Both the position numbers and the translations under genes were made by a program. A stretch of 64,000 bases of DNA, taken from the sequence record OP172792, one strand, 5' to 3'. Below the pieces are notes generated by a model. The model was given only the letters and a program-made list of their open reading frames with translations, made no database searches and was not told the origin of the DNA. Source of the DNA: Escherichia phage ECO340P2. Of the stretch, positions 5,124 through 18,323 are shown piece after piece (position 1 is the first letter of the stretch; each line of letters opens with the position of its first letter).

Positions 5124-5179
5124 GCGGCACCATTGCCGCCCTACAAGATACATATTACCAGATTAAGCGGACTTGTCAA
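5124..5179 (-). promoter_or_regulatory. early promoter + leader hairpin unit (hairpin GCGGCAccatTGCCGC)
   Basis: TGTCAA 5174-5179. Confidence 0.6.
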
Positions 5180-5300
5180 ACTATTTTTTCTTTTTCTTTG
5201 CTTTCAATCGTCTAAGGTTACGGCTGGACTTATTGCGCAAGGCGCTTAGATCGTCGTACCCTTTCCATGCTTGCATATCTTTCGGATTCATGTTATCCCC

Positions 5301-5462
5301 TTACTTGTTAGCCGGATCATATACCAGGACCGCGCCGCTTGCTTTCACGCTTTCCGCTTCATAGTTGCGCAGATCGTTTTCTGTAAGATTGAGCGCGATC
5401 ACTTCCTCGATCTCAACGCCAGCGGCAAGGGCGATCTCTTTGATAATATCTGTTGTTTTCAT
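5301..5462 (-). CDS. hypothetical small early protein
   Basis: track ORF trimmed to ATG 5462 with AAGGTG RBS. Confidence 0.45.
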   Translation of the reverse strand: MKTTDIIKEIALAAGVEIEEVIALNLTENDLRNYEAESVKASGAVLVYDPANK

Positions 5463-5472
5463 GGTGTGCACC

Positions 5473-5592
5473 TTATAAGATGATTGATAAGATAGTGACA
5501 ACGAAAGCGATTATACTGATGGCAAATGTCATCTTTTTACCTTCGGATACTGCCGGATTTTCTACCGTGTATTCTACTGTGTACTTGCTCAT
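5473..5592 (-). CDS. small hydrophobic membrane peptide (39 aa)
   Basis: hand-translated ORF below track size cut-off; hydrophobic C-terminal half. Confidence 0.4.
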   Translation of the reverse strand: MSKYTVEYTVENPAVSEGKKMTFAISIIAFVVTILSIIL

Positions 5593-5614
5593 CGTGTAAT
5601 CCTCTCGTTTGCTT

Positions 5615-5677
5615 TGGGAACTATTCCCGCCGCCCTATGAATTAAATATACACTATCTCAAAATGATTGCAAGCCTT
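5615..5677 (-). promoter_or_regulatory. early promoter (TTGCAA-N16-TATATT) + leader hairpin GGGAActaTTCCC
   Basis: read on minus strand. Confidence 0.5.
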
Positions 5678-5690
5678 TTTCTAAATTATT

Positions 5691-5975
5691 TTATTCAGTA
5701 AACAAACCATCATTTACAACGGCGGCGATGATCTCCCGTGCCATTGATTCAGGGAAAGGGGCGCTATAGTCCTGGCTTGTCTCATCGGTATCGGTGATCC
5801 AATGATAAGCTAACGAGTAAAAGCCTTTACTAACTGTTTTCAGTGAGATGATGATCACTCGGTCAAGCTTATTGGTGAATGTTGCCGTTAATGTGTTACC
5901 CTCCTGCGTCATGTTGGACAAGTAAGCGAGATCATTAATCAGGGAAAACATTAGCACGGTGTTAGCTTTACTCAT
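5691..5975 (-). CDS. hypothetical early protein
   Basis: track ORF trimmed to ATG 5975 with GAGGA RBS. Confidence 0.5.
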   Translation of the reverse strand: MSKANTVLMFSLINDLAYLSNMTQEGNTLTATFTNKLDRVIIISLKTVSKGFYSLAYHWITDTDETSQDYSAPFPESMAREIIAAVVNDGLFTE

Positions 5976-6005
5976 GATTGCATCCTCAAAGGGGCGCGGC
6001 ACCAT

Positions 6006-9658: not shown

Positions 9659-9940
9659 TTAGCTATATGATCCGCACCGCTCGCAATAGTGATCATCGTC
9701 GTCATCTGCCACCTGGCTGATAAAGTGATCAACCTTCATTTTCAGGTTATTATAATTGTTTTCAACTTCTTTTAATCTTTCTTGGTAGTATTCCAGGGCT
9801 TCAACATATGCCGCCTCAGCCGTTTTTTCACGCATAGCTAAATTCATGCCGCGCGTATCATCGTACAGCCAAAAACCATCAGTGCATTCACTCATTGAAA
9901 GCGTAGGGCTTAACTCTTTATGACTAATTACCTTGCTCAT
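9659..9940 (-). CDS. hypothetical early protein (C-terminal CxxC)
   Basis: track ORF trimmed to ATG 9940. Confidence 0.45.
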   Translation of the reverse strand: MSKVISHKELSPTLSMSECTDGFWLYDDTRGMNLAMREKTAEAAYVEALEYYQERLKEVENNYNNLKMKVDHFISQVADDDDDHYCERCGSYS

Positions 9941-9950
9941 AGTGTGCGCC

Positions 9951-10055
9951 TTATAGAAGGATTGAAATAACAATTGCTACAGTGATCCACACTGGAACGG
10001 CTAGAATGATAGCGTTAATCGTTCCAACCGTCAAGCTATTTTCTTTATTAATCAT
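9951..10055 (-). CDS. small hydrophobic membrane peptide (34 aa)
   Basis: hand-translated ORF directly after leader hairpin. Confidence 0.4.
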   Translation of the reverse strand: MINKENSLTVGTINAIILAVPVWITVAIVISILL

Positions 10056-11387: not shown

Positions 11388-11585
11388 TTATTCAAGCCCT
11401 ACGATATGCAAAACACGGCGATCAGCAATAGCGTGCTGGTCTTCTGTTATAACGCACATTTCTACCAGTGAATCAAGAAAGGAAAGCACAGTAATATATT
11501 CGTCATCGGGTACACTCATTTCATTAGTACCGTTTACCATTACGTTGATTTGTCCTGCTTTCGCTACAATGTGCAATGTTGCCAT
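11388..11585 (-). CDS. hypothetical small early protein
   Basis: ORF with GGAG RBS. Confidence 0.5.
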   Translation of the reverse strand: MATLHIVAKAGQINVMVNGTNEMSVPDDEYITVLSFLDSLVEMCVITEDQHAIADRRVLHIVGLE

Positions 11586-11780
11586 GATCTTAACTCCAGG
11601 TGATAAATGATGTTTTTGTTTGTTGACGGTGGATTATGGAGATCCTCACCTTTGCCCGTCCTACATTGCACCCTCCTGTTGTTTATTGTCGTTGTGCCTC
11701 GCCCCCCTCGACAAGATGAATACTACGCTACCCCCTGGCGAACGTCAATCACTTTTCAATCTTTTTCATTTCTTTTTTGC

Positions 11781-12378: not shown

Positions 12379-12541
12379 AAATGAGAATGATTATCATTTA
12401 CCTTCTTAAATAAGAATCAATCTCATTTGAGTAGTTGAATGAGAATCATTCCTATTCGCAAAGTGAGAATAAGTCTCATTTACAACATTAAATGCGAATC
12501 AATCTCATTTGCATTTACATATGAGAATTGTTCTCATTCTC
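12379..12541. repeat. six palindromic iteron/operator-like sites (approx. AAATGAGAAT-N3-5-TCTCATTT)
   Basis: sites at about 12379, 12409, 12437, 12460, 12488, 12519; the last (ATGAGAAttgTTCTCAT) is a perfect palindrome. Confidence 0.6.
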
Positions 12542-12560
12542 ACCTGCATAAAAATTTTTG

Positions 12561-12600
12561 TAAACTTTAAATTTTGCTTTTGTACTTTCATTTTTGTAAA
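12561..12600. repeat. AT-rich 40-bp direct repeat, copy 1
   Basis: about 35/40 identity with 12700-12739. Confidence 0.55.
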
Positions 12601-12989: not shown

Positions 12990-13523
12990 TCATCTTTGCG
13001 GTATTTTGTCTGGGAAAAGTATTTCTATCAGCTTGTTATGATATTTACCTAAAAGATTCTGCCCTTTCCAGGTGGCAGGGTTTAGCACCCCTGGTTCATA
13101 CATCCCCATTCCAATTCCGTATACCTTATCGTAAGGACTTGCTTCAACAAATGTTTTGTATTGATATAGACGTAAATCGGCATACAAGTCTGGATTCTGT
13201 ACATACTTCAAGCATAAGCCTCGCATTACAATACGCTCACGATTCTCTTCCCATACTTTGTTATCGAAGCCAGCTACTGCCCTACCCATACGTTTGTAAT
13301 AAGCTTGTATCTTCTCATCTTCTCGTTTTAAACTATGAGTCAGAATAGCCTGTGCAGTGCTGTGGTCATTAAAAAGCAAAGCTTTACGCCACATCATATA
13401 TTGTTCTACACAGTTAAATGTTTCATTGTATCCTAGCTCCGTCTCTGTAAATGGTGCAAGATACCAATTACTAAACACATCTTTATGTGAAAAGAAGAAT
13501 ACATATTCATCAGTTATTCTCAT
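12990..13523 (-). CDS. NADAR (YbiA-like, DUF1768) domain protein; putative ADP-ribosyl/N-glycoside hydrolase
   Basis: recalled YbiA-family pattern: FFFS..FSNWY..PF, EQYMMWRKALLF, YYKRMGRAV, C-terminal LGKYHNKL; AGGAGG RBS. Confidence 0.7.
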   Translation of the reverse strand: MRITDEYVFFFSHKDVFSNWYLAPFTETELGYNETFNCVEQYMMWRKALLFNDHSTAQAILTHSLKREDEKIQAYYKRMGRAVAGFDNKVWEENRERIVMRGLCLKYVQNPDLYADLRLYQYKTFVEASPYDKVYGIGMGMYEPGVLNPATWKGQNLLGKYHNKLIEILFPDKIPQR

Positions 13524-13711: not shown

Positions 13712-14077
13712 TTAGTCCATCCACCAGTAGCCGTAAACCGCGTCTGCGTCGATGAGTTTGTGTTTGTTGTTCCGCATGTAGTCTAAGATAAGTAGACGTT
13801 TATTGTATCTGGAGAGATTATGACCCTCTTTTCCGCCATAGTCAAAATATTTTGCAAGATCTTTACATTCAAACAAAATTAGTTCAGGAGTTTCCTCACA
13901 CTGGTCTGTCTGGTACACTTGACGAATGATCATGTATACATCATCGTCTTCCGCTAAATGCTCTACTGGTCCACATCCAGCAGGAACAAATTCATAATCC
14001 CATCGAATCAGATGTGTCTCTACTGCTTCAAAGAAGTCCATTCTTTCGTTGCGCATAATTTGAACGTCAACTAACAT
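13712..14077 (-). CDS. hypothetical protein
   Basis: ORF in operon. Confidence 0.5.
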   Translation of the reverse strand: MLVDVQIMRNERMDFFEAVETHLIRWDYEFVPAGCGPVEHLAEDDDVYMIIRQVYQTDQCEETPELILFECKDLAKYFDYGGKEGHNLSRYNKRLLILDYMRNNKHKLIDADAVYGYWWMD

Positions 14078-15279
14078 GTTTCCTCCTGTAATGTTCCACC
14101 ATAAAGTTTATAAATATTTTGTATTGATGCCATGCAAGATAACTCCACTGTCTCTGTGTAGCCATCTGGCATAGAATATTTGCTCACTGCTTCCGTGTGA
14201 AGGACACGCTTACAACGCTTTTCTGCATCTTTGCATTGCTTCACAGTAGGGAAGTGCCACACTTGGCTCTGTTTCATAGTAAACACATTACGACTATTTT
14301 GTTCTTTGATACGGCGATTACTATTATTAGCAATACCAAACTTCAGTGCACAGATAATATCTTGCTCATCGTAAATATAATTAATGTAGGCTTGTTGTTG
14401 ATTCATACCTGCACAACCAGGGCAACCACACCCCTTATTTAACCAATTGTTAGCACTACACACATGTTTCCCATGATCCTTGCAACCATATTCAAAATCC
14501 CCAAGTATAGAAGCTTTCCCGATCCACCCCAACCACACGTACCCTCTACGTTCTACGTCACTTTTTGCTCTAAATGTCACCTCTTCTTCAGAATATTTGT
14601 AACTGGCAGAACAACGACAAGGGCGCATACCCTGTTTTAATGAACTACCTCTACCGATAAAATATCCCGTTCCTACCCCAGCTTTGGAAAACTCATCTAT
14701 AGCACAGATAGGGCAAAATACACTCCAAAGTATTTCGCTCCTCCCAGCTTTTTCCCCTGTATTAGTGAAGGTAGTGCCTTCGGGAAACACACCCGTACTC
14801 ATGAAATCTTGTATGTGCTGATCGTCTGAAAGCTTATTGTGTTTACCTATACCCTCTAAACGACAAACTGGACAACCTTGTTTATTATTCTTAAAGTTGT
14901 CTATGGTAGATGTGTTAAACTCGTGACCCCTATCACAACGTAAGATTACTCGTGTCTTTTTAGCTTTCAGCCATTCTCCGTAGATACCCAAGAAGCGCCA
15001 ACCTCTTTTTAACGCTTCTTCTTCACACTCTTTCTCTTGGTCCTCTCTGCTCTTCGTTCTCTTCTCCCTTTTTGTTAATTCACCACAAGAAGGGCAAGAC
15101 TTCCCACTTTTAAAGTTAGATATTTTACAAGTATCCCATACACCGTGCACAGGACATTCTATCAGGAGTTTAGTCTCACACCCTTTCCATTCTTTATGGC
15201 CTAAAATTTTATATCCTTTAGAGAGAGCTATGATCTCGCATTCTGCTTTATATTCTTCCCAACTTTTAGCTTTACTCAT
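14071..15279 (-). CDS. Cys-rich protein with three tandem zinc-ribbon-like repeats
   Basis: three repeats of C-x-x-HG-x-[WF]...NF...G-x-x-CP-x-C (CPVHGVW..CPSCG; CDRGHEF..CPVCR; CKDHGKH..CPGC). Confidence 0.55.
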   Translation of the reverse strand: MSKAKSWEEYKAECEIIALSKGYKILGHKEWKGCETKLLIECPVHGVWDTCKISNFKSGKSCPSCGELTKREKRTKSREDQEKECEEEALKRGWRFLGIYGEWLKAKKTRVILRCDRGHEFNTSTIDNFKNNKQGCPVCRLEGIGKHNKLSDDQHIQDFMSTGVFPEGTTFTNTGEKAGRSEILWSVFCPICAIDEFSKAGVGTGYFIGRGSSLKQGMRPCRCSASYKYSEEEVTFRAKSDVERRGYVWLGWIGKASILGDFEYGCKDHGKHVCSANNWLNKGCGCPGCAGMNQQQAYINYIYDEQDIICALKFGIANNSNRRIKEQNSRNVFTMKQSQVWHFPTVKQCKDAEKRCKRVLHTEAVSKYSMPDGYTETVELSCMASIQNIYKLYGGTLQEETC

Positions 15280-15320
15280 GATTTCATCCTATAAGAAATG
15301 CCCCTTGCGGGGCATCTTTA

Positions 15321-16460
15321 TTAGAACACGCTACCCAGTGTGGTGGAACGTTGTGTTACAGGCTCCAGCACCACTCGCAGAGTGTTTCCTGGCGTAGTGC
15401 TCATAACCAGAATCTTACCACCTTCAATCAGATCACAAGTTAGACCATCAGCCGTTGCACATAGATCAATATGTGGATCACCATCTTCATCTAGGATAAC
15501 ATAACTATTGGTTTCCATTGCTTCCACTTCATCATCTTTCAAGCTTTGTAGATAGATGTTCAGGGAACAAGCACCCGACAAAAACTTAGTAGGGGTAAAG
15601 TCGTGCCAGTTATTGATCCAATTCACCTTCAGGGTTTTGCCATTAGCTACGATAGAAGCCACATTCCATTTAGCATCGTTGCCTAAAGAAATACCCATCA
15701 TTTCAAGACATTCTTTAAAAGTCATTTTTGGATAGAAATTCAATTCTTCTACAATGCCTTGAATAACATCGAAAGACAACTCTGTGCTAACATCCCATAA
15801 ACGTTGGAAGTTATCTACGTGCTTTTTATTTACCAAGTTCTTATCTAAGTAATCTAACATAGTTTCACTAGACAGTTTATCGTAATTGAAACTGTAATAG
15901 ATACGACTAGGACGGTTTACAAAATATTCCGAGATATAACCACTATTTTTAGTGAGGATGTAAAGTTTATTCCCACTTCCTGTTCCATCCAACAAGGTCA
16001 ACAGTGCTTCCTGATCTTCTTTCTTAGCGTACACTTTATCAAATTCGTCAAATAAAACAACAGCACGATCTGTAATTTTACTCATAAATTCTAAGAAGCC
16101 AGCATCTGTGTAAGGCTGTGTAACCAAAATGGTTGGAATACCTAAACCTTCTGTGGACATTAGAGACATGCTAATTAGTTTAGCTAACATCGTCTTACCA
16201 CTGCCTTTTGTCCCTGTCAGTAACACTCCAGTATTTTTACCTTCTTTACTACGACGAGCAAATGTTTTAATAACATGTGCGGCGCGGTCTTTAGTTTCCC
16301 CATAAAGAGTGTTCGGAAGAGAGAAACTTTCACCACGCACTAAAGAGTAGTTACCGTGCGGATCGCAGTTGACAACCCAAACTCCAGCAGGAAGTTTATT
16401 AGCTTCAACGCCATATTCCTTATTTACAACAGCGACATCTCCAAAAATAGTGTATTTCAT
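15321..16460 (-). CDS. AAA-type ATPase
   Basis: Walker A LLTGTKGSGKTMLAKL and Walker B VVLFDEFDK. Confidence 0.7.
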   Translation of the reverse strand: MKYTIFGDVAVVNKEYGVEANKLPAGVWVVNCDPHGNYSLVRGESFSLPNTLYGETKDRAAHVIKTFARRSKEGKNTGVLLTGTKGSGKTMLAKLISMSLMSTEGLGIPTILVTQPYTDAGFLEFMSKITDRAVVLFDEFDKVYAKKEDQEALLTLLDGTGSGNKLYILTKNSGYISEYFVNRPSRIYYSFNYDKLSSETMLDYLDKNLVNKKHVDNFQRLWDVSTELSFDVIQGIVEELNFYPKMTFKECLEMMGISLGNDAKWNVASIVANGKTLKVNWINNWHDFTPTKFLSGACSLNIYLQSLKDDEVEAMETNSYVILDEDGDPHIDLCATADGLTCDLIEGGKILVMSTTPGNTLRVVLEPVTQRSTTLGSVF

Positions 16461-17784: not shown

Positions 17785-17973
17785 TCAACTAATCAGTTCG
17801 GCTGCTTTACACAGGTACACAACTAACGGATTCAAAGCAAAACCAATCCCAGCTAAAATCTTAACTTTATTACTTTCTGCTTGCATTAACGAAACAGCAA
17901 ACCCAACTACAGTAACAATCATGAATATCATTAAGAACATATAAGTGATTTCACCAGACATATTTAGCTCCAA
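17785..17973 (-). CDS. small membrane protein (two hydrophobic segments)
   Basis: hydrophobic helices; overlaps next gene start. Confidence 0.5.
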   Translation of the reverse strand: MELNMSGEITYMFLMIFMIVTVVGFAVSLMQAESNKVKILAGIGFALNPLVVYLCKAAELIS

Positions 17974-18323
17974 AGATTATCAAAATAGCGAGCAAATAAA
18001 AGACGACCTTGTAATCGTGCTTCTCGTTCCTCTTCAGTATACACGATTTCTGGATGACCACAATCAATAAATGCATTTTCCATAGCTTCCAGAATGTCCA
18101 ACCATTCCTTTTTCCCTTTGGCTTCTTCCTCATCTGTATATGGTGCACTTTTGTTTGGACATACATTGTGCATCACTTTGGTCGGAATCATGACAAACGT
18201 GCTTTTGTTTGCCTTCTCACGGAAGGCTTTAAGCCCTTTGTAAATCACCTCGCCCAAGGCTGCATCTAAATCCATGAGATCATTTTCTTCTATTTGAATT
18301 TCATCATGTACAATTTTCATCAC
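17964..18323 (-). CDS. hypothetical protein
   Basis: ORF in operon. Confidence 0.5.
   Translation of the reverse strand: MMKIVHDEIQIEENDLMDLDAALGEVIYKGLKAFREKANKSTFVMIPTKVMHNVCPNKSAPYTDEEEAKGKKEWLDILEAMENAFIDCGHPEIVYTEEEREARLQGRLLFARYFDNLWS

Follow-up and report, generated by a model that had tools for sequence, protein, structure and literature searches.

A Probable Zinc-Finger-Guided T5orf172 Endonuclease Encoded by a phAPEC8-Like Coliphage

The 402-aa protein described here is probably a homing-type endonuclease, free-standing and specific for particular DNA sequences, in which an N-terminal array of zinc fingers would guide a C-terminal nuclease domain of the T5orf172 type (GIY-YIG superfamily). 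The protein was assigned to the T5orf172/CapR class because of its domain architecture, its fold, its conserved residues, and its direct homology to ICP1 proteins. The gene is located in a 64-kb stretch of DNA (the window, meaning the whole stretch that was analyzed). The window belongs to a Phapecoctavirus genome, that of a phAPEC8/ESCO5-like coliphage. The DNA around the gene (3.6 kb) shares 97.4% identity with Escherichia phage ESCO5, and the same region matches 70 phage records, nearly all of which are from phAPEC8-like coliphages (Phapecoctavirus, Stephanstirmvirinae). The gene is the following feature.

14071..15279, minus strand, CapR/DUF723 zinc-finger array joined to a T5orf172/GIY-YIG-type nuclease, 402 aa (list of open reading frames)

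An earlier note, made from the sequence alone, gave the position of this ORF exactly and interpreted the product as a modular nucleic-acid- or protein-binding array. The array is predicted to be nucleic-acid-binding in kind, as judged from the CapR family, and a protein-binding role found no support. The earlier interpretation is only partly right because the nuclease domain and a fourth finger module were missed. The C-terminal nuclease domain defines the function of the protein as more than that of a binding array.

The ORF is the orthologue of gp152 of ESCO5 (NC_047776), with a DNA identity of 99.7%, and gp152 is named "endonuclease" in RefSeq. The whole protein falls in PHROG 681 (phrog_681, "endonuclease") with an E-value of 5e-75. 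Matches to the protein were obtained by tblastn in 495 phage records, and in a set of 1.84 billion proteins the family accounts for 2884 representative clusters (E ≤ 1e-3). In BFVD, 195 structures resemble the protein at E ≤ 1e-3; the neighbors that carry names are CapR-homology, zinc-ribbon, GIY-YIG, or homing endonuclease proteins. No paralogue was found when the whole 64 kb was searched by tblastn, where the gene matched only itself. The protein has no match in PADLOC or NCBIfam, and a sequence search of the solved structures with the full-length and C-terminal profiles returned nothing meaningful. The gene is an ordinary member of a described class of phage genes whose homing-nuclease type of architecture is widespread among large phages, and GenBank already contains near-identical copies of it. 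According to the earlier note, its proposal would fall if the protein matched an enzyme that is already known and has a single domain. The enzyme family that is matched is known but multidomain, and the finding is therefore not new.

Zinc-Finger Modules R1–R4

The N-terminal 292 residues are divided into four modules.

15064..15279, minus strand, module R1 (aa 1–72), CHCC finger of the DUF723/DUF4379-like subtype (Pfam, hhalign, AF2)
14836..15063, minus strand, module R2 (aa 73–148), CHCC finger of the same subtype as R1 (DUF4379 at E = 1.1e-3, hhalign)
14602..14835, minus strand, module R3 (aa 149–226), CapR-type CCCC finger (Pfam CapR, conserved Cys)
14404..14601, minus strand, module R4 (aa 227–292), CHCC finger (Pfam CapR at E = 1.3e-3, hhalign)

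The array belongs to the CapR-domain family. Comparison with the Pfam CapR homology domain (PF21817) gave an E-value of 7.4e-23 and 80.9 bits, against a gathering score of 24.2. The matches cover four stretches of the 402-aa protein, or three at a stricter cut-off, and 72 of the 76 homologues match CapR as well. The strongest stretch is aa 157–224 within R3, at E = 6e-10 (39.6 bits when isolated, above 24.2). Isolated R1 matches CapR at E = 6e-8 (33.2 bits, above the cut-off of 24.2) and DUF723 at E = 2.4e-3. Isolated R4 scores 19.3 bits for CapR, below the cut-off of 24.2, and isolated R2 has no Pfam CapR match. The Pfam matches of the array to DUF723 and DUF4379 ("treble clef zinc finger") are weak and below threshold.

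The putative ligands of R3 are C189-x2-C192-x28-C221-x-C223, and all four cysteines are invariant among 31 homologues. R3 fits the two-pair CxxC...CxC motif of CapR, yet the spacing is 28 residues rather than the 24–26 of CapR. In place of this motif, modules R1, R2, and R4 carry a C-x2/3-H...C-x2-C variant. The corresponding residues are C42-x2-H45...C62-x2-C65 in R1, C115-x3-H119...C136-x2-C139 in R2, and C266-x2-H269...C286-x2-C289 in R4. Residues C115, C136, and C139 of R2 are invariant among the 31 homologues. The pattern proposed in the earlier note, C-x2-HG-x-[WF]...NF...G-x2-CP-x-C, approximates these units; it reads C-x2-GH-x-F in the second unit, and the third has NW and H in place of NF and W/F.

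Three homologous repeats had been proposed, and they correspond to R1, R2, and R4. Smith–Waterman comparison against 1000 shuffles gave z-scores of 17 for R1–R2, 4.4 for R2–R4, and 2.6 for R1–R4. Alignment of the per-unit orthologue alignments with hhalign gave E-values of 3.6e-40 for R1–R2, 5.6e-11 for R1–R4, and 3.8e-11 for R2–R4. A chance origin of the repeats was ruled out by the shuffles together with the profile comparison. Module R3, located between the second and third repeats, had been overlooked, and hhalign gave no significant alignment of R3 with R1, R2, or R4. The length of about 55 aa given earlier describes the core of a repeat. The full period is 73–76 aa and consists of an N-terminal helix, a β-hairpin, and the finger. 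The acidic/aromatic segment that was said to precede each repeat was recovered as an acidic helix ahead of the finger in R1, R2, and R4. At the DNA level, a search for internal repeats in the gene, of a kind that might promote recombination, returned nothing beyond matches of 15–17 nt at the CPxC codons; the protein repeats are old at this level.

The label "zinc-ribbon-like" was not retained for these repeats. In the AF2 model the second ligand pairs of R1, R2, and R4 (C62/C65, C136/C139, and C286/C289) start the helices H63–73, H137–147, and H287–290, respectively. The modeled CHCC modules thus adopt a treble-clef arrangement and not that of a zinc ribbon, in which both knuckles are on β-hairpins. 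This reading agrees with the weak DUF4379 "treble clef zinc finger" matches.

The three CHCC treble-clef units of the DUF723/DUF4379-like type and the single CCCC unit of the CapR type would make up a DNA-recognition array. The four putative zinc-binding modules of ~70 aa would fold independently as "beads on a string", and the array would place the C-terminal nuclease to cut nearby DNA. From the family precedents CapR and Odn, the 402-aa protein is predicted to bind zinc and DNA and to act as a nuclease. A zinc-ribbon or RING-like scaffold for protein–protein contacts, with no role on DNA, is scarcely credible. The sub-threshold Pfam matches of R2 to zf-RING_2 (E = 0.0094) and zf-rbx1 (E = 0.061) would fit such a scaffold, but all of the units belong to the CapR/DUF723/DUF4379 families and are fused to a nuclease fold. 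The structural neighbors in BFVD are likewise phage CapR-domain, GIY-YIG, and homing endonuclease proteins.

The C-Terminal Nuclease Domain

The array is followed by the last 110 residues of the protein.

14074..14403, minus strand, nuclease domain (aa 293–402), GIY-YIG-superfamily fold of the T5orf172 type

The Pfam scores of this segment are 16.6–19.2 bits for T5orf172, against a threshold of 20, and 17.7–20.4 bits for MUG113, against a threshold of 22.3. T5orf172 is matched by 18 of the 76 homologues at E ≤ 1e-3, the best at 7.4e-5. The AF2 model of the 402-aa protein, obtained with 31 homologues, has a mean pLDDT of 86.5 and a pTM of 0.45. A low pTM combined with a high pLDDT is expected of well-folded domains on flexible linkers. 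The order of secondary structure elements in the modeled C-terminal domain is β-β-α-β-α, as in GIY-YIG nucleases.

The domain is kept in all 76 homologues, for which the overall identity is 21–65%. Residues Y298, K313, G315, R323, E353, G373, E376, and T377 are invariant in an alignment of 36 C-terminal sequences. In the alignment of the 76 homologues, seven of these eight remain invariant, and the conservation of Y298 is at least 90%. The (near-)invariance of the Y, K-G, R, E, and ET positions across this range of identity indicates selection on an active site. The catalytic arginine and glutamate of GIY-YIG nucleases are R27 and E75 in I-TevI. In the present domain R323 and E353 would be the catalytic residues, with Y298, K313, and E376 also conserved. 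Comparison of the C-terminal profile with I-TevI by hhalign, for which an approximate I-TevI sequence was used, returned no relation.

The tyrosines of the canonical GIY and YIG motifs are only partly retained. The motif reads YIN...KFG, and the position of the YIG tyrosine is occupied by K-F-G. These replacements could point to a nuclease-dead DNA-binding regulator, namely a transcriptional repressor that acts through its zinc fingers, like CapR of PLE or the autorepressing I-TevI. CapR, itself a repressor, descends from arrays of this kind (PMC8096241). The C-terminal domain is nevertheless present in every homologue with (near-)invariant active-site residues, and CapR has no such domain. 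Conservation of the putative active-site residues makes a nuclease-dead regulator quite improbable.

Residues K138, G140, R148, E180, and E202 of Odn line up with K313, G315, R323, E353, and E376, respectively, in a weak hhalign match (E = 0.035). Because of this weakness, R323 and E353 can be proposed only tentatively as the equivalents of R148 and E180 of Odn, and likewise of R27 and E75 of I-TevI. The below-threshold Pfam scores of the nuclease domain, the KFG replacement, the weak Odn alignment, and the negative I-TevI comparison count against the best explanation, that of a zinc-finger-guided endonuclease.

Comparison with ICP1 Proteins, CapR, and Odn

The founder of PF21817 is CapR, a capsid-operon repressor from the V. 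cholerae phage satellite PLE (PMC8096241). It was shown by EMSA to bind DNA sequence-specifically through four cysteines in the form of CxxC, 24–26 residues, and CxC (Netter 2021, PMC8096241). Module R3 is the best match to CapR in the present array. CapR differs in being a repressor that stands alone and lacks a nuclease domain; in the present protein, four modules are joined to such a domain. The origin of CapR lies in N-terminal domains of ICP1 proteins ending in T5orf172, which have been proposed to be homing endonucleases (PMC8096241).

The same architecture of array followed by nuclease is present in the putative ICP1 homing endonucleases of the T5orf172 type (gp121, gp130, gp165, gp174, and gp53; PMC8096241, PMC10448857). 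By BLASTP the array is shared with ORF121 of ICP1 (29% identity, E = 1e-18) and the nuclease domain with ORF130 (43% identity, E = 8e-23). As in the ICP1 proteins, the number and order of the modules vary and the modules recombine. Unlike ICP1, the host lineage here is that of Stephanstirmvirinae coliphages, and one copy is found in the 64-kb window in contrast to the multicopy expansion in ICP1. Its position is fixed, adjoining an AAA ATPase gene and not capsid or terminase genes as in ICP1.

Fingers of the CapR/DUF723/DUF4379 families were reported in 87% of 229 phage T5orf172 genes (Barth et al. 2023, PMC10448857, and its preprint PMC10055350). Repetition of the fingers as "beads on a string" is frequent in these genes, where recombination duplicates and shuffles the repeats (PMC10448857, PMC10055350). 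The protein class, the repeated zinc-finger architecture, and the shuffling of domains are thus already published.

The T5orf172 domain of Odn (ICP1 gp88) cleaves DNA in vitro, and cleavage is abolished by the E180A mutation (PMC8263062). Of the family members considered here, Odn alone has demonstrated divalent-metal-dependent cleavage of DNA (PMC8263062). The target of Odn is the replication origin of the satellite PLE (PMC8263062). The likeness to Odn lies in the T5orf172 domain, whose K-x-G, R, E, and ET motifs are conserved at corresponding positions in the alignment, although the sequence similarity is marginal. The GIY-YIG homing endonucleases of T4-like phages, I-TevI among them, have other DNA-binding modules and the reverse domain order; in I-TevI the nuclease is N-terminal, whereas it is C-terminal here. 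SLX1 and HIGLE, eukaryotic structure-specific repair nucleases with a RING/PHD partner domain, are related only at the level of the fold.

Reassortment of Modules at a Conserved Locus

The gene is flanked by the following features.

15321..16460, minus strand, AAA-type ATPase directly upstream (Pfam AAA at E = 8.7e-7)
15298..15315, minus strand, GC-rich hairpin ATGCCCC-GCAA-GGGGCAT followed by TTCTTAT (consensus scan, sequence reading)
13712..14077, minus strand, downstream ORF of 121 aa (no Pfam match)

The hairpin sits between the stop codon of the ATPase gene and the RBS of the endonuclease gene (AGGA, 15287–15290). It resembles a terminator and may limit read-through into the nuclease gene. 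The 121-aa ORF has its start codon overlapping the stop of the nuclease gene (ATGTTAG) and its RBS (GGAGGAA) within the 3′ end of that gene. This translational embedding suggests long residence of the nuclease gene and not a recent invasion. The earlier note had placed the gene between NADAR and the AAA ATPase. The ATPase is indeed directly upstream, and two small ORFs of 121 and 62 aa precede NADAR. The order in Phapecoctavirus is ATPase, endonuclease, 121-aa ORF, 62-aa ORF, and NADAR; in Justusliebigvirus it is ATPase, endonuclease, and NADAR, with both small ORFs absent.

An endonuclease allele follows the ATPase in all but one of the 11 Stephanstirmvirinae-type loci that were examined. It is present at loci L001–L008 and L011–L014 and absent at L009 and at the distant L010; six of the ATPase loci were contributed by IMG/VR. 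At L009, an IMG/VR contig, the ATPase is followed by a DUF6939 ORF, with neither the endonuclease nor NADAR. No empty target site was found among the loci of the relatives. The sporadic presence and absence that marks homing endonuclease genes is thus not seen here: the allele varies and not its presence. For the ATPase protein, 62 phage records reach an identity of at least 99%. For the endonuclease, an identity of at least 95% is reached in only 7 records, which represent four phages, and it is mostly ~60% or less elsewhere.

The near-universal presence at one locus, the lack of an empty site, and the embedded downstream start and RBS are fitted equally well by a long-resident, possibly domesticated nuclease. 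Such a nuclease would be kept for the benefit of the phage, with the variable array aimed at the DNA of a coinfecting phage, a satellite, or the host. A locus that is fixed across Phapecoctavirus and Justusliebigvirus, a highly variable array beside a near-invariant ATPase, and the translationally coupled 121-aa ORF speak for domestication. Precedent is provided by Odn of ICP1 (PMC8263062), and Odn-like T5orf172 genes were reported in the Phapecoctavirus Mt1B1_P17 (PMC10055350). However, at this locus Mt1B1_P17 carries an ordinary three-module CapR allele, 61% identical, and not a RepA_N fusion. The present protein contains no target-derived domain and has no PADLOC match, and homing with turnover of alleles explains the pattern equally. 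Domestication is considered unlikely. The locus was also considered as the site of the Odn-like RepA_N-T5orf172 gene of Mt1B1_P17; this was rejected, and the allele found there encodes 335 aa.

Comparison with phAPEC8 separates the two parts of the gene. The zinc-finger codons are 42–61% identical in DNA sequence, and the nuclease codons and flanking genes, namely the ATPase and the neighbors of NADAR, are 95–100% identical. The drop in identity has sharp edges near 14400 and 15300, and the zinc-finger part is a locally swapped cassette. Megablast matches of other relatives stop at gene positions 330–333 (aa 292/293, the junction of R4 and the nuclease) or at gene position 761 (~aa 148–149, the junction of R2 and R3). 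The nuclease of one homologue (P0002) is 97% identical and its R2 is 34% identical; for another (P0003), R1 and R2 are 80 and 90% identical, respectively, and the nuclease is 35% identical. Modules reassort between homologues. With module-specific HMMs, 77 proteins were resolved into 17 architectures of one to six finger modules, with the nuclease last every time.

For the probable zinc-finger-guided homing endonuclease, the rival genome would be cut during mixed infection and repaired from the nuclease-carrying genome. The allele and its flanks would spread in this way (homing or marker exclusion), and swapped or added finger modules would provide a new target. Active homing of the gene, as suggested by these sequence comparisons, is less certain than its assignment as an endonuclease. 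One bolder and rather unlikely proposal is a fixed nuclease for "allelic warfare", found at one locus in essentially all phages of the phAPEC8/Justusliebigvirus type, that benefits the phage and is not a selfish homing element. Its ~70-aa treble-clef modules would reassort to retarget rival phages or satellites. If true, the protein would be a natural modular zinc-finger nuclease, and the module-to-DNA code might be readable from natural alleles.

The discovery value of the gene itself is small, as RefSeq already labels near-identical copies "endonuclease". The locus offers a clean natural example in which, at one conserved site, the nuclease domain and the neighbors are near-invariant and the putative DNA-binding modules are swapped and re-counted. 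The allelic series is found in easily grown E. coli phages and is convenient for deriving the DNA-recognition rules of CapR/DUF723 fingers. The same series is suited to the question of homing versus domestication.

The four phages that carry the same allele were compared in blocks of 200 nt. The gene is 98–100% identical per block and the flanks are mostly 90–98% identical in this small sample. Within these four phages no other stretch of the region is as well conserved as the gene. The sharp mosaic boundaries together with this identity peak are suggestive of, and compatible with, lateral spread.

Hairpin and overlapping reading frames around the endonuclease gene

The gap of 41 nt in the window between the stop codon of the ATPase gene and the ribosome-binding site and ATG of the endonuclease gene contains a GC-rich hairpin, which was read directly from the sequence:

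15291-15320, minus strand, perfect hairpin, GC-rich, ATGCCCC-GCAA-GGGGCAT, then TTCTTAT

This hairpin could be a terminator or an attenuator that limits expression of the nuclease. Comparable expression-limiting elements are known for some free-standing phage nuclease genes. At the other end of the endonuclease gene (14071-14095), the stop codon overlaps with the start codon of the 121-aa ORF in ATGTTAG, and the Shine-Dalgarno sequence of this ORF (GGAGGAA) lies inside the final endonuclease codons. Together, the overlap and the position of the Shine-Dalgarno sequence imply that the 121-aa ORF would be translationally coupled to the endonuclease. No Pfam match was obtained for the 121-aa ORF or for the 62-aa ORF, and the corresponding locus in Justusliebigvirus lacks both.

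Nuclease domain and gene content in relatives

The nuclease domain of the endonuclease is 43% identical to that of ORF130 from Vibrio phage ICP1:

29757-30944 of the ICP1 sequence (L015), ORF130, adjoining the large terminase gene

Several coliphage homologues are farther from the window domain than is ORF130 (35-49% versus 43%). The closeness of ORF130 would fit an exchange of nuclease domains among distant phage lineages. The only relative found with differing content at the ATPase/endonuclease locus is a Justusliebigvirus-like contig (L009, IMGVR_UViG_3300030441_000047), where the position following the ATPase (5168-6002) is occupied by a 229-aa DUF6939 protein (E = 1.3e-9) in place of the endonuclease and NADAR genes.

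NADAR gene and other variable stretches

12990-13523, minus strand, NADAR-domain protein gene (Pfam, E = 1.2e-35)

The NADAR-domain protein has a second match (E = 9e-36) in PADLOC, to the candidate defence family PDC-M42C. It is labeled as "GTP cyclohydrolase II" in several RefSeq phage records, probably a mis-annotation inherited from COG3236. The DNA identity of the gene is only 89-93% to ESCO5, phAPEC8, and BI-EHEC, and in parts somewhat lower to ukendt and anhysbys, whereas the adjoining genes are mostly 95-100% identical. Variation was also detected at these positions:

9659-9973, minus strand, 104-aa ORF in a stretch unaligned with the closest relatives
11400-11600, 12400-12600, and 17800-18200, low-identity patches (66-77%)

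The stretch of the 104-aa ORF did not align (coverage of 0.1-0.3) with ESCO5, ukendt, anhysbys, or iGC_PHA_EC001, which are the four closest relatives, and appears to be a small strain-specific insertion or replacement. The three patches, outside which the relatives are 93-99% identical, are further mosaic spots of the early-gene region with no connection to the endonuclease. No tRNA genes were detected by ARAGORN in the whole 64-kb window (1-64000). Near 18.9-19.0 kb, the transcription units diverge and both the GC skew and the coding strand switch; a second sign change of the GC skew appears near 56 kb.
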